Positions 4,989 through 21,976 of a stretch of 51,154 nt of DNA are shown in pieces. This DNA comes from a virus (Duplodnaviria > Caudoviricetes): positions 1 through 51,154 of IMG/VR virus record IMGVR_UViG_3300010401_000012; one strand, 5' to 3'. A program made the translations under genes and the position numbers. The notes below the pieces were generated by a model. That model was not told where the DNA came from, did no database searches, and saw only the letters and a program-made list of their open reading frames with translations. Each line of letters starts with the position of its first letter. Position 1 is the stretch's first letter.

Positions 4989-5528
4989 ATGTGGAGTTCT
5001 AAGCAAGCACCTGAAGTCACTGCGCTATTGATCGACGGTGCCAACGCATACCATAGTAGTCAGAAGGTCGGGTATATGCTCGACTACAAGCGCATTCGGG
5101 CTTACTTCAGGCCACAGCAGGCGTTGTACTTCACTGCTCTGCCTGATCGTGCCGCCGGTGAGAACAACATCCACAAGATGATCGATCTCATCAACTACAA
5201 CGGCTACGTCGTCATCCAGAAGCCGATGCAGACGTACGACAACGGCTCTGAGGGCGTAAAGACCAAGGGCAACATGGATGTCGAGCTGGCTGTTCACATC
5301 ATGAAGTGTGCCCGATGGGCCAACCACATCGTTCTCTTCAGTGGGGATGGTGACTTCCGGTTGGCTGTCGAGGACGCACAGCAGCAGGGCGTGCGTGTCA
5401 CTGTGGTATCAGCCTTGAAGGTCTCGGGTTCCCCGATGATCTCGGATGTACTGCGACGGCAGGCCAATGACTTCCTTGACCTTGCTGACCCGAGGATCAA
5501 GGCAGACTTCGAGATGACCAGACTATAG
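4989..5528 (+). CDS. NYN-domain (LabA/DUF88, PIN-like) nuclease
   Basis: Motifs IDGAN, KGNMDVELAV, LFSGDGDF, GVRVTVVS and SDVLRRQANDFLDL. Confidence 0.92.
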   Translation: MWSSKQAPEVTALLIDGANAYHSSQKVGYMLDYKRIRAYFRPQQALYFTALPDRAAGENNIHKMIDLINYNGYVVIQKPMQTYDNGSEGVKTKGNMDVELAVHIMKCARWANHIVLFSGDGDFRLAVEDAQQQGVRVTVVSALKVSGSPMISDVLRRQANDFLDLADPRIKADFEMTRL

Positions 5529-5938: not shown

Positions 5939-6278
5939 GAGCTTATTATTCGCATTGTTCCTATCACAAGCGCCTATTCAGGACGTGCCGGTCTTCCGCG
6001 ACCAGCCCACATTGGTGGAGTACCTCAATGCAGACCTTCGCCTACCTGCTCGACGGGTTCATACTATTCATGTTCGTATGTCTGGCGACGGCGGCGTGGG
6101 TACCGAAGAGACGTTCACCAAGACGTACCCGCCGATCCCATACATCGACTTCTGGCGATGTCCGCTAGGCCAGACGGCGGTGCAGTGCATCGCCATAGAA
6201 AGCGTCATCCAGCAGGAATTACCCGGCAAAAGCATGCTAGAGCTTAAGCCGTTCTTCCCGGACCCTCTCGGGAAGTAA
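5931..6278 (+). CDS. Hypothetical protein, possible signal peptide
   Basis: GGAGAG RBS; N-terminus MTKSLLFALFLSQA. Confidence 0.6.
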   Translation: MTKSLLFALFLSQAPIQDVPVFRDQPTLVEYLNADLRLPARRVHTIHVRMSGDGGVGTEETFTKTYPPIPYIDFWRCPLGQTAVQCIAIESVIQQELPGKSMLELKPFFPDPLGK

Positions 6279-6285
6279 GCTTCGT

Positions 6286-6314
6286 TTGACATAACCACTA
6301 AGACGGGTTATACT
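6286..6314 (+). promoter_or_regulatory. Sigma70-like promoter
   Basis: TTGACA-N17-TATACT. Confidence 0.85.
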
Positions 6315-6341
6315 GGTTCTACAATCGGAGAGGGCAAACCG

Positions 6342-7830: not shown

Positions 7831-9303
7831 ATGACGAAATCGACTAATAAGACCATTATCTTCGTTCGCGAACCGGGCGTCGACGTGCCCGAAGCCTACC
7901 TCCGTAAGGTCCTGGCGGCCTGCCCCAGCGGCGGCGGCTACAGTATCCAGTCCAAGGACAAGGACGGCAACCCCGAACTCATCACCGACAACATGGACGT
8001 CGCCGTCCAGCTCAGTGATGTCCAGGATCTCTTGAAGTCGGCGGTCAGCCATCGGGTTCTCTTCGCCTTCAACAAGCTGGAGAAGGTCGACGAGAAGTTC
8101 CTCCAGCCGTACCACGTCGCACTCGACGGCGACGACGTCTTGCTTTCCTTCGCGATCGACGGGCACTTCCCGACGATGGTCGAGGCCGGCAGCACGGAGG
8201 AGTCGCTGCTCGCCCAGCGGGTGATGTTTCCGAATATCCAGAAAATCATCAAGTACTCCGCCGGCGATCTCGACAAGTTCCTCGCCGAGCTTCGCGATCC
8301 CACCTTCGTCGACATGGTCATGTCCCGTATTGGTGACCGTGGTGCATTCTGCTTCCTGCCGCCCGTCGGCGACGCCATCTGGCTCGGCAAGAACACGCTG
8401 GGCTCGACGTTTCCGTGGGGTCAAACCTCTGATACTCTCGGCTATACCGAAACGGCCGCGATGGCTGCGCCGGCCAAGGCGGACGTGAACGACAAGAAGA
8501 AGGGGTGGTGGGGCAAGAGCAAGGGACCAGAAGTCCCCGTGGCTCAGGAGACGGCTCCGGTTGTCCCCGCAGCGCCGGCCGCCCCACCGCCCAACCCCGT
8601 TCCGCTGAATATCCCGGCTACCCAGCCGGATACCAAGGTCACTCCGCCCGAGGTCACCCCGGTCGAGATCGATCCGAACGCACCGCCACCGGCGGGAAGC
8701 TGGAAGGTCGTTCCGAAGGGGATGTCGAAGGACCAGCGGAAGAAGTTCATTCGGCGGGTTACCAACTGCGGCGCCCAACTGCCGATCGGCTGGAACGTCG
8801 ACCCGTTCCGGTATTGGGAAGTCGAATACCCGAAGGACGAACGGCTGACGGCCTTGGTCGAGCAGAAGCGGCTCGAACCGAAGGACATGCGGGCACCGGC
8901 TCCCAAGCCTGTCGCCCCGAAGTCCGGCAGCGAGGTCGACGTCCTCATGATGTCCAAGGAAGAGCGCGACGGCATCGAGACCCACATCCTCAATGTCCTC
9001 GGCTACAACGCCAAGCATCGGACGGAACCCTTGGAAATCCAGAAGCAGGAGAGCGTGTACCCGCCGTTCAGCCAGGAATTCGGCGTCAAGTTCGAGGTCT
9101 TCAACGGCTGGACCCCGAAGCAACTCCGTCTACTCGGATCGAAGGGGCTCATCCACTACGCCCTCGAAGCCCGACGTCGTTTGATCAATACCGCCGCCGG
9201 CTCCCCGCCGGTGGAAGTCGGCGACACCGCACCTGCGGTCGCCGAGAATTCGGCAACCCCGGCCCCGAAGAAGGGTTACTGGGGCAAGTCGAAGGCTGCC
9301 TAG
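7831..9303 (+). CDS. Protein with degenerate class II glutamine amidotransferase (Ntn)-like N-domain and Pro-rich C-half
   Basis: GAGG RBS, strong GC3 bias; spacing matches phage GATase-II motifs but key residues differ. The CDS is secure, the fold is inferred. Confidence 0.65.
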   Translation: MTKSTNKTIIFVREPGVDVPEAYLRKVLAACPSGGGYSIQSKDKDGNPELITDNMDVAVQLSDVQDLLKSAVSHRVLFAFNKLEKVDEKFLQPYHVALDGDDVLLSFAIDGHFPTMVEAGSTEESLLAQRVMFPNIQKIIKYSAGDLDKFLAELRDPTFVDMVMSRIGDRGAFCFLPPVGDAIWLGKNTLGSTFPWGQTSDTLGYTETAAMAAPAKADVNDKKKGWWGKSKGPEVPVAQETAPVVPAAPAAPPPNPVPLNIPATQPDTKVTPPEVTPVEIDPNAPPPAGSWKVVPKGMSKDQRKKFIRRVTNCGAQLPIGWNVDPFRYWEVEYPKDERLTALVEQKRLEPKDMRAPAPKPVAPKSGSEVDVLMMSKEERDGIETHILNVLGYNAKHRTEPLEIQKQESVYPPFSQEFGVKFEVFNGWTPKQLRLLGSKGLIHYALEARRRLINTAAGSPPVEVGDTAPAVAENSATPAPKKGYWGKSKAA

Positions 9304-13581: not shown

Positions 13582-13818
13582 CGGACGGTGCCCGTAGGTC
13601 CAACGACCGCAGCGGGCACCTCCTACTTAGGAGCATAGCTCCGTAACGGCAGCGAAGCTGCCTAGGATATACTATGAAACCAAAAGATTACCCATTGCCC
13701 TGGTGCGATAAACTTGATATGCCTTACTACGCTGTAAACATGTACCTGATAAATACAGTGGAAGGGTGGAGTAAGAAACAAGCTTACAAACCAATGTCTG
13801 AAATCATTCCTTGGATTG

Positions 13819-15783
13819 ATGAAATACTTGAGAATAGCGTTTAATATAGAAGCTAATGGCCTGAAGCCTGATCACATCTGGTGCGTAGTCTGTAAGGACA
13901 TAGACACCGGAGAGATACGTCGTTTCAATAATTTAACAACAGACGATAAGGAACGAGATGGATTTCTTAGCTATTTCAATGACGCTGAATATATTATTGG
14001 TCATAACATCCTTGGCTATGACCTTCCTGTGTTACATCAACTTATCGGAATACAATTTTCAGCTAGCGCAGAACATTGCTGCGATACGCTCGTCATTAGT
14101 AAGCTTGCAGACTACCCTCGAAAAGGGCACTCAGTTGAACATTATGCCGTTGAGTTCGGAGGAGTTAAACAATCTCAGGTATCTTATTCCCATCACTCCC
14201 CAGAACTCCTCGAATACTGTGAGCGTAAGGCTGAACTAGCCCATAAGATATACCAGAAGTATGAGAAATATATCCACAATGAGAAATACCAACGAGCTAT
14301 TGATCTCGAACAACGGTTTCAATTAGTATGTAATAATCTTCATGACAACGGGTTCTCCTTTAATGTAAAGAAGGCGGAAGCCTTACTCGATCGAGTTGAA
14401 GGAGAACTCGCTGTCCTCGACAAGGATATCCTTGAAGCTTTCCCACCTAGACTTAAGCTCATAAGAGAGATCAACCCGAAGGAGACGAAGCATGGCACTA
14501 TTAGTCTTACTTCCATTCCTAAGGAAATGCGTCAAGACATTCCTGATCTTAACGTTGATGCTCCTTTCTGTTATTGTAGTTGGGTTAGTTTTAACCCAAG
14601 CAGTCATAAGCAAATTGTTAATGTACTTAACGAAGCTGGCTGGCGACCTGTAGAGAAAACACAGACCCACATAGACGTAGAGCGTGAACTCCAGAAATTA
14701 AAACATACTAAGCGGGATGCCACGCTTGACATAACGCTTCAAGAGTTATATACTAAACTTAATAATCTCAAGGTGTCTGGCTGGAAAGTAAACGAAGCCA
14801 ACCTTGATACCCTTCCTATGTCCGCGCCTAAAGCAGCGCGGGTGCTAGCACGTAGGATACTCCTTGAGTCCCGGCGCAGAACCCTCACCGAGTGGTTGGC
14901 GTTAGCAACCGAAGACAGCCGTATACACGGAAAGTTTTACGGCATCGGCGCCTGGACCCATAGGATGGCGCACCAAAATCCCAATACTGCTAACATACCA
15001 AATGCTGTTAAAGTCTCGGACGGGAGTAAAACTCTCTACGGGAAAGAACTTCGTGCATTATGGCAGGCTCCAAAGAACCGCCTTCTCGTAGGCGTGGATG
15101 CCGAAGCTATTCAGTTACGAGTATTCGCACACCTTATCAACGATCCAAATCTCACAAACGCTATCGTAAATGGTAAGAAGAGCGAAGGAACTGATCCGCA
15201 TTCTCTCAACAAGAAATACTTCGGCAGCTTCTGTAAGACTAGAAATGCTGCAAAGCATAGCCTATACGCCATGTTCTTTGGTGGTGGTCCCGGCAAGATA
15301 GCCGAGATCATGGGTTGTACAAAGGAAGAAGCCGAAGAAGCCATAGCTTCACTGATCGAGAAGTACCCCGGGTTGCATGACCTTCAAACAAAGGTCTTCC
15401 CCACTGATGCAAAACGTGGGTACTTCGTCGGTCTCGATGGCAGAGCTGTACGAATACCCGGTGATACTGTAGGTAATAGAAAACATCTATGTATGTCAGG
15501 CTACCTCCAATGCGGAGAAGCCGTCATAATGAAAGCAGCTACACTTAAATGGATAAACAAATTGAAGGAGTACGATGCGAAGCTAGTGAATTTCGTACAC
15601 GACGAGTGGCAGATCGAATGCCCGAACAACATGGCGACGGCGGTTTCGATTGCAGATTTGGTGACCAAGTCTTTAGAAGAAGTGGGTCGAGACCTATGTC
15701 TCAACTGTCCTATGGCGGGCAGTTACTATAACGACGACGACAAAGACTATACTATCGCGACCAATTGGTCCAAAACACATTAG
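13819..15783 (+). CDS. Family A DNA polymerase (T7 gp5-like) with degenerate 3'-5' exonuclease
   Basis: GHNILGYD, GAWTHRM, motif A VGVDAEAIQLR, motif B RNAAKHSLY, motif C VHDE. Confidence 0.96.
   Translation: MKYLRIAFNIEANGLKPDHIWCVVCKDIDTGEIRRFNNLTTDDKERDGFLSYFNDAEYIIGHNILGYDLPVLHQLIGIQFSASAEHCCDTLVISKLADYPRKGHSVEHYAVEFGGVKQSQVSYSHHSPELLEYCERKAELAHKIYQKYEKYIHNEKYQRAIDLEQRFQLVCNNLHDNGFSFNVKKAEALLDRVEGELAVLDKDILEAFPPRLKLIREINPKETKHGTISLTSIPKEMRQDIPDLNVDAPFCYCSWVSFNPSSHKQIVNVLNEAGWRPVEKTQTHIDVERELQKLKHTKRDATLDITLQELYTKLNNLKVSGWKVNEANLDTLPMSAPKAARVLARRILLESRRRTLTEWLALATEDSRIHGKFYGIGAWTHRMAHQNPNTANIPNAVKVSDGSKTLYGKELRALWQAPKNRLLVGVDAEAIQLRVFAHLINDPNLTNAIVNGKKSEGTDPHSLNKKYFGSFCKTRNAAKHSLYAMFFGGGPGKIAEIMGCTKEEAEEAIASLIEKYPGLHDLQTKVFPTDAKRGYFVGLDGRAVRIPGDTVGNRKHLCMSGYLQCGEAVIMKAATLKWINKLKEYDAKLVNFVHDEWQIECPNNMATAVSIADLVTKSLEEVGRDLCLNCPMAGSYYNDDDKDYTIATNWSKTH
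14726..14754 (+). promoter_or_regulatory. Sigma70-like promoter inside the polymerase gene
   Basis: TTGACA-N17-TATACT, same hexamers as the promoter at 6286. Confidence 0.65.
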
Positions 15784-15791
15784 GAGTTACT

Positions 15792-15959
15792 ATGACTAAT
15801 TACGTTACTCAATACGACTACAGCATCCGCACTGGTGGAACGATGACGTTCGATGCGGATAGCAAAGACGAAGCCGAAGAGATGGCGAAGGAATACATCG
15901 CTGAGACTTACCCCGAAGCTTTTGATATCGAGGTTGTAGAAGTGGATGCTGTCCTCTGA
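15792..15959 (+). CDS. Small acidic hypothetical protein
   Basis: AGGAG RBS; TGATG overlap with the SSB gene. Confidence 0.65.
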   Translation: MTNYVTQYDYSIRTGGTMTFDADSKDEAEEMAKEYIAETYPEAFDIEVVEVDAVL

Positions 15960-16471
15960 TGGCACAGTTCTCAAAGACAACCCACGAGAGTGTCAAAGGT
16001 AAGTGTAAGTGGGCACACGTCACACGGCTTAATCGATACGACGCATGGAGTATTGAACTTTGGCCTATACCCGAAGACCTTGAACGTATCCGTGAATGGC
16101 AAGCCAAAGGCTTGAAGAACACGATGCGCAAGGACGAGGAAGGCTATAATATTCGGTTCAAACGTGAGCCGACGAAGAAAATTACTCTACGTACAGGTGA
16201 GATTAAACACCTGACGTTCGCACCTCCCTCTGTCGCCATGGCCGATGGGTCACCCCTCCCTCAAGGTGTATCCATCGGCAATGGTAGTGACGTCACAGTC
16301 CTACTGGAAGTCTATACTCACGGTACACCTGGTGGTGGACAAGCAGTAGCGTGTCGTCTCGAAGGAGTGCGGGTAGATAACCTCGTACCGTTTGATCCTT
16401 CTCGTGATTACACTCCTGAAGAAAAAGAAAAGGTAGACGCACTGACGTCTCAACCGGAGCATATATTCTAA
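15959..16471 (+). CDS. Single-stranded DNA-binding protein (T7 gp2.5-like)
   Basis: GKCKWAHV, IGNGSDV, RLEGVRVDNLV; C-terminal Phe; lies just after the polymerase. Confidence 0.85.
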   Translation: MAQFSKTTHESVKGKCKWAHVTRLNRYDAWSIELWPIPEDLERIREWQAKGLKNTMRKDEEGYNIRFKREPTKKITLRTGEIKHLTFAPPSVAMADGSPLPQGVSIGNGSDVTVLLEVYTHGTPGGGQAVACRLEGVRVDNLVPFDPSRDYTPEEKEKVDALTSQPEHIF

Positions 16472-16683
16472 TGGCTATGGATAATCTTAACATCTCTAAT
16501 GAAGATGTATGGAAGCGTGTCGATAACATCGGCAGTACTCGTTTCATAAATATGGTTGACGGAACTACACGGGATGTCCCGTGGGGTACCCTCGACTACT
16601 GGAATATCTTCGTTGGTAATATCCTTACCTTTGCAATCCTCGGTGGGTTTGCTTGGATTGGTATTCACTACTTGACTAAATAA
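16471..16683 (+). CDS. Small membrane protein
   Basis: TAATG overlap; C-terminal transmembrane segment. Confidence 0.6.
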   Translation: MAMDNLNISNEDVWKRVDNIGSTRFINMVDGTTRDVPWGTLDYWNIFVGNILTFAILGGFAWIGIHYLTK

Positions 16684-19195
16684 GCGGCTGTTGCGCCCGC
16701 ACCTTGGCAGTAGGGTAGGTTAAACTGCCATTATTCAATCTAGCCAACTCCGATGCATATGCCGGAGCACTGGACAAGAGGGTGAGAGGCCCTCCCAATA
16801 CAGTAGTGCTTTGAGGCGGTGACAAGCCATAACCTCATCGATCTCCACAGGGAGCCGTGCCAGTCGGCTGCTTATCCGTAAGTGAGAGCCACTACGAAAT
16901 TCTTGAACGTAGCTCAACAGCAAGAGCCCCGACTTGTATAGTCTTGTGGACCCGATTAAAGACGGTCGTAATTCAAGGTGGGAAACCTCGGGAGATCAGG
17001 GTTAAAGTCCCTGCGTTCAGCCTTAGTTGATACTGAAGAGCAAATCGTCTGAGCATGGCTCTATGGGTTGACGCCCCCAGTATCATGCCTCCTGCCTTCC
17101 AACGCAGTAGAGGTGAAGAAACCGTACAGGTAAAACTGGCGGGAAGAGACCGCAGCCGGGTTTGGAGTAAGGTCCACGTCTGAGGTGAATTCCTGATCGG
17201 GAACCGTGATCCGTAGGTGGAAGCGTACAACCGCATGCCGTCTAGGCTGCTCTGTGATCAGGCGTGGAGTAATCGCACGAGGAACATGCCACGTTAATCC
17301 GTCCTCCGCTACGTACTTACGAAAGCATCTGAAGGCTGTCGTAGCCTCGGTGGCCCGCGTAAGCCGTCACCAAAACAACGTAGATGTCGGTAGGGACACT
17401 CCGCAAGGAGGCACGTATAATCCGTGCGTTTAAACAGGCGACCTCTCAAAGTAAGATGCGAGACAGGACATTGAGGGACTGTCGTTGTAAGCACACCGCT
17501 CTCATAAGGCGGTATATAAAATGCATGGCTCGCAGATCGGCCAAGCGGTGTCGTAGTGCAGCGGGTGGTTGTGGACCATCGCAGCATAGGGGTTGTCTGG
17601 AATGGCAGCTCTCGAAGAGCACTGACCTACATGGTAGGTACACACCAAGGATGCTAAGCAAGACTTCTAACGCGGACCCATTCTTGAGTGGCAATCCGTA
17701 GTACACCGTGACGCCACGGGGTTACAAGGTAGCATAGATACCGACGATCTTTCTGACCGAAATGAGGGAGCGTGACCCTCGCCCGTGGGACGGGTTTCAT
17801 GAAGATAGTAGGTTGGACGGCAAGAAGCCCGGTTCGATGCCGGGGTAACAGGTGAAACTTCTTGACGACGTATGGATCGCTGAAGGTCGGGGTGGGATGC
17901 AATCGGGGTGCAACCCGATTTAGGAAGCGTCGAGCACTTCCCTTGTATGAGTCGCCTACAGCCCGGGCATGAAGTCGCTATAAAGCCGATGCATCAAAAA
18001 CCAGGGTATGCTCAGCCGTATCTGAGCTACAGCTTGATCGTCCACTGACGCTGGTTGGTAGGATGTAACCGTAGGGCCTGAGGTCACCGGACCGTTTAGG
18101 AACTCTGGAGCTGGAAGTCCATTTACCAAGACATGCTTCTGCAGCATTGAGGACTGTTCGCTAGGTTCTGTAGTGCTCAATCGTAGACGTAGCTTGGTCT
18201 AGGTTTAGGGTTCCCTATAGCCCAAACCGTAGGACGTAGAGCAGTGTATTGATTGTCGACACTTGCTTAGTAGGAAGAATGGTTTGGATGGTTACGACCG
18301 TACCCGCTGTGCCTGACTGTAAATCAGGTCCCTATTGGGGGGCGTGTTAGCCGTAGTGTACGACGCTGTAGTGGCCCGTATAATAGGCTTTCCTTAGCAG
18401 CACATTAAAGTAGGTCAAGAGAACACCCGACAGTCCATCGGGAGGTTCTAATCCTCCGACTCGGAGGGGTACCGCGGTAAGAACAACTGTGGCGAAGCAC
18501 CGCCGGTCTAGGTAGGCAGCGTATAGCAATGCCGTAGCCGAGAGAGACTGACAAGGATTGACCCAGTGAGACAGCGTTCACAACGGTACCAAACAGACAA
18601 CAGGGTTAACGACCCATTGTTTGCAACAGACTTGAGCCAGCGTAGCTGGCAGGCAACTTCGTTGCCGAACTAACATAAGCCAGAGGTCGTAGAGGTACGC
18701 CCTGAGCCGAATGAAGTCGTGGAACTCCGCATGGGGTGCAACTCCCTGGGATAAGAGCCGAGCATGTGGCTAGAGGGCCTTTACATGACCCTGACCGGAG
18801 CTGTAACGTAAACCTTCTTGTTAGCAAGTCCATGAGAATTCACCTAAAGCAGCGCCAGATTAGCGTTGAGCTATAAGAAGGGGATGTACCTTCTTAGATC
18901 AGAGAGAGGCCCGCAGGCAACACATCTCACCACAGAATGCACTCTGACAGAGGAGAGCACACAATGTGTGTCATGATCACGATGCTCAAGATGTTGAAAT
19001 ACCTCCAGCGTTGCCGGGAACCACCTTAAGAATTTCCCGGGGTGGGACGTAGGAACACCAAAGCAGTAGAGTCAGTTCTGCTGACGGCTAGTTAAATAGC
19101 TTGAAAGCTTACGAGTGTTCTAGTCCCACAATACCCGGATCGAATGGGAACCGGGGTGGCCCCTACTGGATGAGCGCCCCGTAATCCCCCATAAA
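16684..19195 (+). ncRNA. ~2.5 kb putative structured non-coding RNA or RNA array with tRNA- and rRNA-like parts
   Basis: No credible ORF in an otherwise tightly packed genome; dense short hairpins whose G-U pairs and loops read correctly on +; anticodon stem-loops and T-arms. Confidence 0.8.
16903..17021 (+). ncRNA. tRNA-like element with enlarged anticodon arm
   Basis: Acceptor TTGAACG/CGTTCAG, TA, D-arm GCTC-AACAGCAA-GAGC, CCGA...TCGG enclosing ~55 nt, GAGAT, T-arm CAGGG-TTAAAGT-CCCTG; no CCA. Confidence 0.7.
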
Positions 19196-19205
19196 GGAGA
19201 CGACC

Positions 19206-19490
19206 ATGAGTAAACTCGACAAGATTTTGGTCGAGGCCCTGCTCTTCAAGGATAAGCCTCCGACCGAAAAGAAATCCAAGAAAGCCATCACGATGAAGGA
19301 GTACATCAAGTTCAAGAAAGAATTTGATGAATTCCAGAAGTTGCTGAAGGAAGAAGCCGACAAGAACAAGCCGAAGGACGACAAGAAGAAAGACGAGCTG
19401 ACATTCTGGCAGAAGACTGCGCTCCTCCACATCGGTGCGCTCGGTTACTTCGCCACGTTGGCCTTGTTGTTCAGGCTGACATTCCACTAA
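19206..19490 (+). CDS. Lys-rich protein with C-terminal membrane segment
   Basis: AAAGGAGA RBS; strong codon bias. Confidence 0.75.
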   Translation: MSKLDKILVEALLFKDKPPTEKKSKKAITMKEYIKFKKEFDEFQKLLKEEADKNKPKDDKKKDELTFWQKTALLHIGALGYFATLALLFRLTFH

Positions 19491-19560
19491 CATTAGGACG
19501 GCCCCTCTGCGACGTCAGACTTAATATTGTACAGGCAAGGGTCGTCCTTTAGGACATACA

Positions 19561-19920
19561 ATGACTGATAAATACTATAATAAGAACGGTGATGTAGCCG
19601 TCTTGATCTCCAAAGATTATGGTGGGGGTTGGAGTACGTGGAATTCTGATTACGCAGAAGAGATGGTCTTCGATAAGGATATCGTTAAGATCATACTTGA
19701 CAATCCTATTAGACCTGAAACAATTCTTCGTTTGAGGCCTGAAGACTACGATAAGGTTAAAGAGATTTGTAAGACTAAGTACCCTAAGGCATACGTAGAC
19801 GGTATGGATGACTGCTTAACTGTCGAATGGTTGAAACCCGGTACTGAATTTATGATCCATGAGTATGACGGATCAGAAAGTATTTGGACCGCAGAAGATA
19901 TAAAGAAATACATTGCCTAA
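19561..19920 (+). CDS. Conserved-type phage hypothetical protein
   Basis: VAVLISKDYGGGWSTWN and IHEYDGSE motifs recalled from other phage proteins; AGGA RBS. Confidence 0.8.
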   Translation: MTDKYYNKNGDVAVLISKDYGGGWSTWNSDYAEEMVFDKDIVKIILDNPIRPETILRLRPEDYDKVKEICKTKYPKAYVDGMDDCLTVEWLKPGTEFMIHEYDGSESIWTAEDIKKYIA

Positions 19921-20788
19921 TATTTCTACATTAATACAGGACATACATGAATTCCTCCATGGAAACAGAGCCGACGGAACAGGTTGGTTCAACGAAGAAG
20001 TGGCAAAGGCGTACTCCGAGGAGGTCACCGGACGACTTAGACAAAGCTTTGGCCCTAGAGAAACTAAAGCTACTCTACGTCTCAGCCAGATGGGTCCAAA
20101 GTGCCCGCGACAGTTGTGGTACAGTATACACCGGCCCGAGCTTGCCGAACCTCTCCCCCCTTCCGCCGTGGTCAAGTTCACTTATGGACACCTACTCGAA
20201 GCCCTCGTAATCTCGTGGGCTAAAGCTGCTGGACACGAAGTCACAGGAGAGCAAGATGAACTGGTTGTTGACGGGGTCAAAGGTCACCGAGATTGCGTTA
20301 TCGATGGGTGTCTTGTTGATGTTAAGTCCTGTAGCAGTATTGCATTTCGAAAAATCAAAGATGGACTTCTGGCCCAGAGTGATGATTTTGGGTATCTCGA
20401 TCAACTTGATGGCTATCTTGTGGGCTCACGTAATGATACTCTTGTACGGGTTAAGGATCGAGGATATATTCTAGCCGTCGATAAACAACTAGGACACTTA
20501 GCACTCTATGAACACATTGGACGACCAGCTCAAATACACAATAGGATTAGCGAATATAAATCAATTGTGGATAGACTTGAGCCACCCCCTTGCGGATGCC
20601 ATACGGTCCCCGACGGTGCAAGTGGAAACATTAAACTTGATGTACGAGCGAGCTACAGCCCTTACAAATGGTGTTGCTTCCCTCATCTCAGATGTTTCGT
20701 CTACGCCAAAGGACCAGTCTACTTAACCAAAGTAGTTAGGAAACCAGATGTCATTGAAATTAATCAACAAGGTCAAGTCGTATATTGA
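19913..20788 (+). CDS. PD-(D/E)xK superfamily exonuclease (Cas4-like)
   Basis: LRLSQMG.CPRQLWY, GHLLE, GHRDCVIDG, VDVKS, YLDQL. Confidence 0.88.
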   Translation: MPNISTLIQDIHEFLHGNRADGTGWFNEEVAKAYSEEVTGRLRQSFGPRETKATLRLSQMGPKCPRQLWYSIHRPELAEPLPPSAVVKFTYGHLLEALVISWAKAAGHEVTGEQDELVVDGVKGHRDCVIDGCLVDVKSCSSIAFRKIKDGLLAQSDDFGYLDQLDGYLVGSRNDTLVRVKDRGYILAVDKQLGHLALYEHIGRPAQIHNRISEYKSIVDRLEPPPCGCHTVPDGASGNIKLDVRASYSPYKWCCFPHLRCFVYAKGPVYLTKVVRKPDVIEINQQGQVVY

Positions 20789-20999
20789 GCGGCTAAGGCT
20801 CTTCAAAGAAGTCGAACGCGAAGGAACTGCAGACGATTGGGCTACTGGTTTCAATATAAGATTTCGTGATGAATTTGGTACACTATGGCATATGGGTGCG
20901 TACAAGGACCCAGAACATTGGCATGAACAAAAGGTCAATCGTTCTCAGATTGTACACACACGTAACCAAATTATCAAAAGACTGAAGCGTATACTGTAG
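20748..20999 (+). CDS. Hypothetical protein
   Basis: AGGA RBS; overlaps the exonuclease 3' end. Confidence 0.55.
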   Translation: MSLKLINKVKSYIERLRLFKEVEREGTADDWATGFNIRFRDEFGTLWHMGAYKDPEHWHEQKVNRSQIVHTRNQIIKRLKRIL

Positions 21000-21025
21000 A
21001 CAAGCACAGTAAAATCTGTTATACT
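20997..21025 (+). promoter_or_regulatory. Sigma70-like promoter with extended -10
   Basis: TAGACA-N17-TATACT with TGT preceding the -10. Confidence 0.65.
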
Positions 21026-21083
21026 TAAAGACAGTTAGTCTATTACTGCGAAATAGATAATCCCAAGAAAAGAAAGAAAAACA

Positions 21084-21275
21084 ATGAACGCAGAATATCA
21101 GATCAAGACGGCCGACAATGGTTATCTCGTCCAGCGCGTCATCGAAGTCGAAGTCGAGAACACTCCGGATGCTCCTTTCAAGGACCCTTATGAGCGCTCG
21201 ATCTTCGTGTTCGCCGATTGGGCGGGCGTGATCGCATGGCTGAATGGTAATGAGCCTGCCAAGAAGGCTGCCTAA
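21084..21275 (+). CDS. Hypothetical protein
   Basis: Strong codon bias; lies downstream of a promoter. Confidence 0.7.
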   Translation: MNAEYQIKTADNGYLVQRVIEVEVENTPDAPFKDPYERSIFVFADWAGVIAWLNGNEPAKKAA

Positions 21276-21669
21276 ATCCTCTGTTGCCCCCTCGGGATTA
21301 ACCCCCCGAGGCCGGCATCTTCTTAAGAAATATGGGATAACAGAAGAACAATATGCTCTACTATATACTCAACAGAACGGAAGTTGCTACGTCTGTGGAA
21401 GACATTCTGATGAATTCAAATCCAGACTTGCAATCGATCACGATCACGAGACTGGGGAAATCAGAGGACTTCTGTGTTTCTTTTGTAATAGATACGTTAT
21501 CGGACGCTACCGTAGACGAAGTATCGAAACGCTTAGACGCGCTGTTGATTACCTCGACAGAGAATACACAGGCTGGGTAGTACCACCGAAGGTAAAGAAG
21601 AGGAAGAAACATGGACGAAAGCAATCCTCTACAAGTAAAGTTGTTAGACGGATACGGCGATCCCCATGA
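21244..21669 (+). CDS. Endonuclease VII family (recombination endonuclease)
   Basis: YGITEEQY, Q.GSCYVC, IDHDHETGEIRGLLC..CN; start uncertain. Confidence 0.9.
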   Translation: MVMSLPRRLPKSSVAPSGLTPRGRHLLKKYGITEEQYALLYTQQNGSCYVCGRHSDEFKSRLAIDHDHETGEIRGLLCFFCNRYVIGRYRRRSIETLRRAVDYLDREYTGWVVPPKVKKRKKHGRKQSSTSKVVRRIRRSP

Positions 21670-21976
21670 CACGGTGACTCATGATGGAGTACCGTATGAC
21701 CTCAATGTAATTCGTAAAGGTGTTCGCTACCTTCCTCGCCAACTATTTGCTGTAGCTGATATGGCATGGTTACTGGCTGAGTGCCCGTGGACCGAAGAAG
21801 ACGAACAACGCATACCAATAATTAATATGCGCCGTCCTGTTTTCGTAGTATGGTGGCAGGGTAAACTCTGTAACATCGATGGTTACCACCGATTAAAGAA
21901 TGCAGAACGTCTAGGGATGAAGTACCTTCCTGGAATTATGGTACCTGATGAAGTCATGAATGAGGCTAGAAAATAA
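21611..21976 (+). CDS. ParB/Srx-like domain protein
   Basis: PVFVV...IDGYHRL..A...G. Confidence 0.65.
   Translation: MDESNPLQVKLLDGYGDPHDTVTHDGVPYDLNVIRKGVRYLPRQLFAVADMAWLLAECPWTEEDEQRIPIINMRRPVFVVWWQGKLCNIDGYHRLKNAERLGMKYLPGIMVPDEVMNEARK

Follow-up and report, generated by a model that had tools for sequence, protein, structure and literature searches.

A probable very large, structured non-coding RNA in the interval between the single-stranded DNA-binding protein and exonuclease genes of a clade of soil phages

What is specified by 2.5 kb of phage DNA in which no gene can be recognized? This question is raised by positions 16684–19195 of the IMG/VR virus record IMGVR_UViG_3300010401_000012 (Duplodnaviria; Caudoviricetes), a complete record of 51,154 bp with direct terminal repeats of 123 bp, the whole of which is called the window here. 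A first-pass annotation, made by a model from the sequence alone, had described this region as a nearly continuous run of short hairpins without open reading frames (ORFs), and had proposed that it is either a polyvalent RNA decoy assembled from tRNA and rRNA parts or a new class of large structured RNA. Based on the comparison with related phages completed here, the most probable reading is that the region specifies one + strand non-coding RNA, very large and highly structured, or a few adjoining ones, from a previously undescribed family. The family would occupy the interval between the genes for a single-stranded DNA-binding protein (SSB) and an exonuclease in a clade of soil phages that are distantly related to the Zobellviridae and have terminally repeated genomes of about 50 kb. 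The RNA most likely has a conserved core of ~2.05 kb (17023–19070), or ~2.5 kb with its 5' additions, and a range of ~1–2.5 kb across the family.

The longest open frame in 16600–19300 has 108 codons and lies on the - strand, and the three + strand frames are interrupted by 50, 50 and 48 stops. No frame spanning the region was opened by reading any one or two of the stop codons as sense, as in alternative genetic codes, and none of the 10 longest chance ORFs had a Pfam match at E ≤ 0.1, so that the lack of genes stated in the first-pass annotation was borne out. In the comparison between the window and a relative designated L002, mismatches are distributed over the three positions modulo 3 as 165/141/153 in the RNA region, with no codon periodicity, whereas the DNA polymerase gene (polA), used as a control in the same comparison, gave 106/80/256. 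Indels that are multiples of 3 make up only 6 of 41 and 6 of 40 in the core (pairwise alignments with relatives), and the sole indel in polA is a multiple of 3. An open frame, periodicity and triplet indels, the marks of a protein-coding gene, are therefore all lacking in this region. The identity between the window and L002, as summed from the mismatch counts, is nevertheless ~75% in the RNA region and ~77% in polA. The region is thus non-coding and yet conserved, in L002, L041 and L085, about as strongly as polA, and its sequence is kept by purifying selection, though not for a protein.

The short hairpins noticed at the outset are about twice as frequent as in shuffled sequence. Perfect hairpins (stem of at least 5, loop of 3–8) number 31 in the region against 14.5 ± 4.6 in dinucleotide shuffles, none of 200 shuffles reached 31, and six coding windows of equal length have 15–25. 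All six of the hairpins that had been quoted exist, at 17399–17410, 17411–17427, 17706–17719, 18010–18027, 18652–18666 and 18875–18897. As had also been claimed, the region contains no tandem repeat unit; direct or dispersed repeats and iterons were likewise not found inside it.

The core (17023–19070, + strand) is homologous to L002 8284–10220, to L041 11160–12926 and to a metagenome contig, L085, and its base pairing was examined in a three-genome alignment (A1) of the window, L002 and L041. By RNAalifold, A1 (core 17023–19100) folds at -1152 kcal/mol into 552 pairs, of which 143 show compensatory change, while six column shuffles of A1 gave 62–81 compensatory pairs at about -765 and the polA coding control gave 71 (+ strand) and 88 (- strand) at about -670. 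As a control for circularity, the window was folded alone and its pairs were then scored in L002 and L041; 79 doubly changed cells were still paired, as compared with 39.7 ± 6.1 when pairable columns were drawn at random. When L085 is included in the alignment, helices of at least three pairs number 96 and extend from 17028 to 19044, the last of those with compensation ending at 19015; 117 pairs are compensated and 87 of 1,686 cells are broken. Up to ~130 nt are spanned by the predicted helices, within which several hairpins are nested. Among the compensated helices, CTCC-GCAA-GGAG of the window is replaced by CTGC-GCAA-GCAG in L002, and GAGGG...CCCTC is replaced by GTGGG...CCCAC in the pairwise alignments; in a 5' three-way junction (17028–17085, + strand), consisting of a closing helix and two hairpins in the consensus fold, compensation is recognized in all three helices. 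The alignments thus show predicted base pairs of the region being kept by compensatory change, and compensation above the controls, together with the strand specificity described below, places the region among conserved structured RNAs in the generic sense.

A polymerase search returned 80 related loci, likewise designated by L-numbers. Clear homologues of the region among them are L002 (nhmmer E-value = 1.9e-251) and L041 (3.4e-101), and L085 is 93–99% identical over 17399–18805. The gene order polymerase, SSB, interval, exonuclease is kept in 48 relatives with a polymerase identity of at least 46%, the interval having a length of 1.5–4.2 kb, and 31 of these 48 intervals hold a stretch of at least 1 kb without a + strand ORF of at least 70 aa. 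Relatives at 31–37% polymerase identity have no such interval. In the more distant intervals hardly any sequence similarity to the window is left, and a profile search of them with nhmmer gave 10 weak collinear matches on the + strand and one on the - strand. Within three other subgroups, compensatory pairs exceeded those of the controls (91 vs 31–44, 67 vs 10–15 and 113 vs 78–91) and no periodicity was seen. The interval between the SSB and exonuclease genes, which the first-pass annotation had asked to find in related phages, is thus present in these 48, and two modules within it are conserved with covariation across the clade.

Outside these loci, a blastn search against 50,697 phage records gave no match to the region, a conserved block of 19 nt occurred in viral contigs only in those of L002 and L041, and a two-block pattern was found only in known viral contigs and in one metagenome contig, L085. 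A further genome contig with the two-block pattern (L087) was rejected as a chance hit: module R2, described below, has no match in it, the pattern lies inside an ORF of 600 aa on the other strand, and neither blastn nor tblastn detected any similarity. The closest cultured phages are Zobellviridae, for example Lentibacter phage ICBM2 and Roseobacter phage CRP-5, with a polymerase identity of only ~37%, and the nearest of them have no non-coding gap between polymerase and exonuclease. In ICBM2 (L086, 6813–9969), the order from polymerase to exonuclease is kept and the interval is filled with genes including ThyX. Since the cultured relatives fill the interval with genes, the large RNA seems to have arisen within the soil clade.

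Two modules were followed beyond the close homologues. Module R3 (17390–17521, + strand), represented by a covariance model, comprises the GCAA-tetraloop hairpin at 17399–17410 and hairpins at 17411–17427 and 17495–17513. It also matches L016, L013, L051 and L029 at E ≤ 0.0011 and, in L016, L013 and L029, lies ~430–475 nt upstream of R2, as in the window. Module R2 (17858–17970, + strand; models R1 and R2) has a GUGCAA-loop hairpin (17902–17919) beside a T-loop-like hairpin (17924–17940), with outer helices enclosing them, and across the family its loop reads GUGMAA. After one rebuilding round, a search of 967 kb with the R2 model gave 25 matches at E ≤ 5. Every one is on the + strand, and they are spread over the window and 22 loci (E ≤ 0.01 in 16 loci); 24 of the 25 lie inside the SSB–exonuclease interval, the exception being L025 5793–5923. 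In the alignment of R2 (A6), which was fitted to the model, 84.7% of the cells are paired, compared with 58.4% in shuffles and 34–48% with slid partners; double changes were found in 26 of the 30 pairs, and the covariation score is 0.491, a value reached by none of 500 shuffles, versus 0.148 in the shuffles. A structure-blind MAFFT alignment of 12 R2 members recovered both hairpins. These matches show at least two predicted sub-domains to be conserved, collinear and strand-specific across the clade.

Which strand carries the RNA cannot be told from Watson–Crick compensation, and the assignment is based instead on the asymmetry of motifs, on G-U pairs and on the orientation of the genes. Over the 48 intervals, T-loop and GNRA-type hairpins are 2–4.5 times more frequent on the + strand: T-loop hairpins number 86 on the + strand and 19 on the - strand, GNRA hairpins 121 and 59, GTGCAA 34 and 9, and GTGAAA 78 and 20. 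G-U pairs are frequent in A6, the consensus folding has 104 broken cells on the + strand against 141 on the - strand, and all of the neighboring genes are oriented on the + strand. It is thus indicated that the putative RNA is specified by the + strand.

Several points weigh against a large structured RNA. Single-sequence folding in 150-nt windows is no better than that of shuffles, which is the outcome that the first-pass annotation had named as contrary to its own proposal; the mean z is ~-0.56 for 33 windows in the region versus ~-1.17 for 22 upstream coding windows, and the z of -0.94 for 16684–17030 is not significant. Because the folding energy gives no such signal, the case for structure rests on comparative evidence, and this has its own limits: RNAalifold itself favors covarying pairs, the pairing in A6 is inflated by the fit to the R2 model, there are only three close homologues (L002, L041 and L085), so that most core helices rest on three or four sequences, and the compensatory counts are equal on both strands. 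In some relatives (L013 and L016), + strand ORFs of at least 70 aa run through much of the interval. Lastly, the mechanism considered below, with its architecture-based action and processing at the tRNA-like element, is only inferred.

The 5' end of the region differs between relatives. A 5' leader with a hairpin (TTGGCAGT...ACTGCCA; 16684–16735, + strand) is common to L002 (blastn 16701–16735 = L002 8253–8287; also in A1). It is followed by a segment of ~289 nt (16736–17024, + strand), the 3' part of which is shared by L034; the segment is missing in L002, as seen from a gap in both A1 and blastn. The last 119 nt of this block, adjoining the 5' edge of the core and making up less than 5% of the region, form a cloverleaf resembling tRNA (16903–17021, + strand), into whose anticodon loop ~50 nt are inserted. 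It scored 35.8 bits with the Rfam tRNA model RF00005 (cut-off 29; E-value = 5.2e-06) in a scan of 401 nt, and this match depends on the laxer filters of that scan, an Rfam tRNA search over the whole genome having found nothing. The homologue in L034 scored 34.1 bits and has a 29-nt insertion in the anticodon loop; between the two, five pairs in three stems show compensatory change. ARAGORN called no tRNA in the window, the tRNA-like element included, and with introns allowed gave calls only in L005 and L034 among 49 intervals. Besides L002, which does not have the carrying segment, no tRNA match was found in the 5' segment of L041, and the record of L085 ends short of it. Since L002 and L041 have no match, the tRNA-like element is, as judged from these sequences, an accessory module of the large RNA.

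By its score above the gathering cut-off and its cloverleaf, the element at 16903–17021 belongs to RF00005. It resembles canonical tRNA and viral tRNA-like structures in having acceptor, D, anticodon and T stems, which covary with those of L034. In tRNA, the GG of the D-loop normally pairs with a C of the T-loop to make the elbow. However, the D-loop here (AACAGCAA) has no GG, the T-loop, UUAAAGU, has no C at the corresponding position, and the anticodon loop is interrupted by the ~50-nt insertion, so that the element does not qualify as a functional tRNA. A detached T-arm-like hairpin, CCGG-TTCGATG-CCGG, was located by a motif scan at 17829–17843 (+ strand); L002 and L041 retain its TTCGA loop but have GTGG/CCAC as the stem. 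The tRNA arms noticed earlier are thus represented by this hairpin and, in addition, by a whole cloverleaf.

Gain and loss are not confined to the 5' end. A 36-nt twin hairpin (18633–18668, + strand), GCCAGC-GTA-GCTGGC followed by GGCAAC-TTCG-GTTGCC, exists only in the window and is exactly absent in L085, L002 and L041. A hairpin at 18875–18897 (+ strand), TAAGAAGG-GGATGTA-CCTTCTTA, is specific to the window and is absent in L002 and L041 (A1), and several other hairpins differ between relatives by insertions of 20–40 nt. Beyond ~19070 the similarity in A1 is lost, leaving a poorly conserved 3' tail (19071–19205, + strand) that contains the ribosome-binding site of the next gene, AAGGAG, upstream of the ATG at 19206. 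The alignments show the predicted RNA to be modular, with hairpins and whole segments gained and lost between relatives. As for the twin hairpin, a near-copy was found on the opposite strand at L002 281–314, and a contig of a sequencing run (X5) skips it, the short side having only 20 letters; the twin hairpin looks like a tiny mobile hairpin element.

Known RNA families do not account for the region. The whole window gave no match to Rfam at the gathering score. At E ≤ 10, the search of 16400–19500 and of four windows of 400–800 nt returned, apart from tRNA, only chance-level matches to animal long non-coding RNAs, Alpha_RBS, mascRNA and Mcr7; no group I or group II intron, rRNA, RNase P or tmRNA was matched at this threshold. 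The tRNA-like cloverleaf is accordingly the sole match above chance level, and the full coverage by a known Rfam family that the first-pass annotation had named as contrary to its proposal was not found. Models of GOLLD, ROOL and OLE, for which Rfam has profiles according to PMC12286853, gave no match either at the gathering score in the whole window or at E ≤ 10 in the region.

GOLLD, as described in PMC12286853, is a very large and ornate RNA encoded by phages or prophages, with a variable 5' part, a conserved core and an unknown function, and is often near tRNA genes, sometimes with an embedded tRNA. The putative RNA of the window is similar in being phage-encoded, and a tRNA-like element adjoins its core on the 5' side. 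However, GOLLD has ~800 nt as against a core of ~2 kb here, no Rfam match exists, and the lineage is that of soil relatives of the Zobellviridae. ROOL is described in the same source as a large phage-encoded RNA, rich in pseudoknots and tertiary contacts, without known protein partner and often near tRNA islands; with ~600–660 nt it differs from the RNA of the window, which has no Rfam match and sits in a replication gene cluster, not in a tRNA island. The association with tRNA seen in GOLLD and ROOL is represented in the family only by the tRNA-like element of the window and L034, and ARAGORN found no ordinary tRNA in the other intervals examined. GOLLD and ROOL would be the closest in kind to the RNA of the window, which is unrelated to them by model and 2–3 times longer. 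The non-coding RNA arrays of UG27 reverse transcriptases consist, according to bioRxiv 10.64898/2026.09.22.753630, of repeated units of ~150 nt beside the reverse transcriptase and two accessory genes, and share with the region a long phage intergenic location and a structured RNA of diverse sequence missed by standard repeat and homology tools. An array of this type was rejected: a six-frame search of the whole 51-kb genome for reverse transcriptase (PF00078) gave no match at E ≤ 1, R2 and R3 each exist once in the window, and there are no repeats. Searches of the literature returned no description of a phage non-coding RNA of more than 1 kb of this kind; fragments could be included in the supplementary tables of PMC10690425, which list 8,495 candidate structured RNAs from IMG/VR.

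How far do other explanations fit? The region could be a string of separate smaller structured elements, either independent RNAs or cis-acting elements that stabilize or regulate the polycistronic replication transcript, and this we consider rather unlikely. Segments do come and go (the 289-nt block, the 36-nt twin hairpin, hairpins of 21–41 nt), the interval varies from 1.5 to 4.2 kb, only two modules of ~110–130 nt are demonstrably common clade-wide, and neither a dedicated promoter nor a terminator was found for the region. However, conservation and compensation are unbroken from 17028 to 19015, the spacing of ~430–475 nt between R3 and R2 is kept in subgroups though the sequence between them has diverged, and the predicted helices reach ~130 nt and nest several hairpins; in addition, 2 kb far exceeds the length of known cis-regulatory leaders. 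The decoy proposed in the first-pass annotation, in which many tRNA- and rRNA-like pieces would be displayed to soak up ribotoxins or RNA-binding proteins of the host that target tRNA or rRNA, is improbable. Phages are known to counter tRNA-cleaving defences with their own tRNAs, and the tRNA-like cloverleaf in the window and L034, the T-loop hairpins enriched on the + strand of the family intervals (86 vs 19) and the word CGTAG, possibly a recurring site for protein binding (16 on the + strand vs 2 on the - strand, 3.4 expected), would suit such a role. However, the tRNA-like element was not found in L002 and L041 and so cannot be the core function of the family, its ~50-nt insertion disrupts the anticodon loop and makes it a poor mimic for anticodon nucleases, and the bias of CGTAG is weak family-wide (145 vs 101). 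The rRNA-like words that had been claimed did not hold up, since no rRNA model matched at E ≤ 10, and the conserved parts are ornate folds unlike tRNA. Neither an anticodon-loop or sarcin–ricin mimic in the region nor a defence or toxin context was identified. So, of the two proposals made at the outset, that of a new class of large structured RNA has good support from conservation, from compensation about twice that of the controls, from two modules, from strand-specific motifs and from the lack of an Rfam family covering the region, whereas the polyvalent decoy or sponge of tRNA and rRNA parts, for which there is one tRNA-like cloverleaf and no rRNA similarity, is not.

An action as DNA, for example as a hairpin-built replication origin or a recombination or packaging site among the replication genes, is very improbable. 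The position between the SSB and exonuclease genes, the excess of short perfect hairpins and the compensatory counts, which are the same on both strands, would all agree with it, but the RNA-type loops are strand-biased (T-loops 86 vs 19, GNRA 121 vs 59), many of the conserved G-U pairs would, if read from the opposite strand, give A-C mismatches, broken cells are more numerous on the - strand (141 vs 104), and iterons or repeats are lacking. Decayed or recoded protein-coding sequence, for which nothing speaks beyond the position between genes, can practically be dismissed: stops are frequent in all frames under every recoding tried, there is no third-position bias, 35 of the 41 indels are not multiples of 3, no chance ORF (0 of 10) had a Pfam match, and conservation about equal to that of polA is not expected from decay.

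If the region does specify a large structured RNA, it would be transcribed together with the replication genes by the host RNA polymerase, because no promoter was found directly upstream of the non-coding region. Two copies of a 55-nt repeat, at 2586–2640 and 6273–6327, are 71% alike and contain TTGACT or TTGACA, 17 nt and TATACT; from this sigma-70-like arrangement they are probably two host-type early promoters, and the host polymerase would start from them. The RNA would be kept stable by its own fold, and the excess of G over C (GC skew of ~+0.10) and the dense structure would suit a long untranslated stretch. As in GOLLD and ROOL, it may act through the shape into which it folds, serving as a scaffold, a particle or a platform for binding, and not by base-pairing with a target; the wealth of GNRA-type loops and T-loops suggests a compact tertiary fold or assembly. 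The complementarity of the region to the rest of the genome amounts to only two matches of 13 nt, and no antisense target was recognized. The tRNA-like element, where present, might serve as a processing signal setting the 5' end of the core. A bolder version, which we hold to be possible though doubtful, is that a single folded RNA of ~2–2.5 kb, with T-loop and GNRA modules as its building blocks, forms a particle or cage while the phage DNA is replicated, and captures or presents tRNA-shaped molecules or translation components, possibly as a decoy against translation-targeting defences. If true, such an RNA would be about three times the size of GOLLD, approaching 23S rRNA, and no larger structured RNA outside the ribosome would be known from a bacterial virus.

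Few large ornate RNAs of the kind of GOLLD, ROOL and OLE exist; they were recently shown to form RNA-only cages and pipes, their functions being unknown (PMC12286853). A further family that is unrelated in sequence, 2–3 times larger and clade-wide in uncultured soil phages would mean that ~5% of a 51-kb genome is invested in RNA architecture, and would widen the size range known for non-ribosomal folded RNAs. It would also be a new target for structural biology, in which nature has already added or removed whole modules (the tRNA-like block, the 36-nt twin hairpin), and its constant position between the genes for SSB and exonuclease would be a handle on what such RNAs do during infection.

The genes on the + strand at ~640–23,930 include a primase-helicase, a family-A DNA polymerase, a calcineurin-like phosphoesterase, endonuclease VII, a uracil-DNA-glycosylase-like protein and an NYN-domain nuclease, whereas the structural genes of the phage are on the - strand. 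Upstream of the region is the gp2.5-like SSB of 170 aa (15959–16471, + strand; PHROG phrog_112, E-value = 8e-05), homologues of which stand before the non-coding interval in the relatives. It is followed by a small ORF of 70 aa with a hydrophobic C-terminus (16471–16683, + strand, from the ORF list and its translation), which is absent in L002, has no Pfam or PHROG family, and gave no homologue by tblastn in any related locus. The downstream small ORF (19206–19490, + strand) encodes 94 aa with a hydrophobic C-terminus, has a homologue of 65% identity in L002, and gave weak Pfam matches only. Both ORFs end in a hydrophobic segment resembling a membrane anchor, the downstream one being very rich in lysine; no family beyond weak membrane-protein matches is recognized in them, and they could be partners of the RNA. 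The interval is closed, in the window as in the relatives, by a Cas4-domain exonuclease of 291 aa (19913–20788, + strand; PHROG phrog_1990, E-value = 1.6e-28).

The NYN-domain (PIN-like) ribonuclease (179 aa; 4989–5528, + strand; PF01936, E-value = 6.8e-27) could be the enzyme that processes the RNA or its tRNA-like element, with a linkage that is not strict; as an obligate partner it was rejected, the gene existing in only two of four complete relatives checked. An ORF of 490 aa at 7831–9303, without a Pfam or PHROG family, lies in a stretch of 63% G+C, compared with ~45–50% elsewhere, and was possibly acquired separately.

The sequencing runs that contain the window are labelled as soil or rhizosphere metagenomes, one of them possibly being the source sample; none is listed as an RNA run, which speaks neither for nor against expression. 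One run (X6), labelled RNA-Seq and rated as probably DNA, contains two contigs of 151 nt on 16741–16891 and 16899–17048 with one mismatch each; they cover the block bearing the tRNA-like element and its junction with the core, and are not usable as evidence of expression. The other contigs of this run on 13800–21700 are less than 95% alike, and the shares of the window in other runs are small or possibly from the source sample.

Short words are also unevenly distributed between the strands of 16684–19195. CGTAG occurs 16 times on the + strand and twice on the - strand, with 3.4 expected, and CCGTA 12 times and not at all, respectively, while over the 48 related intervals the strand bias of CGTAG is weak (145 vs 101). 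Several of the copies of these two words read CC-GTA-GG or TC-GTA-GA.

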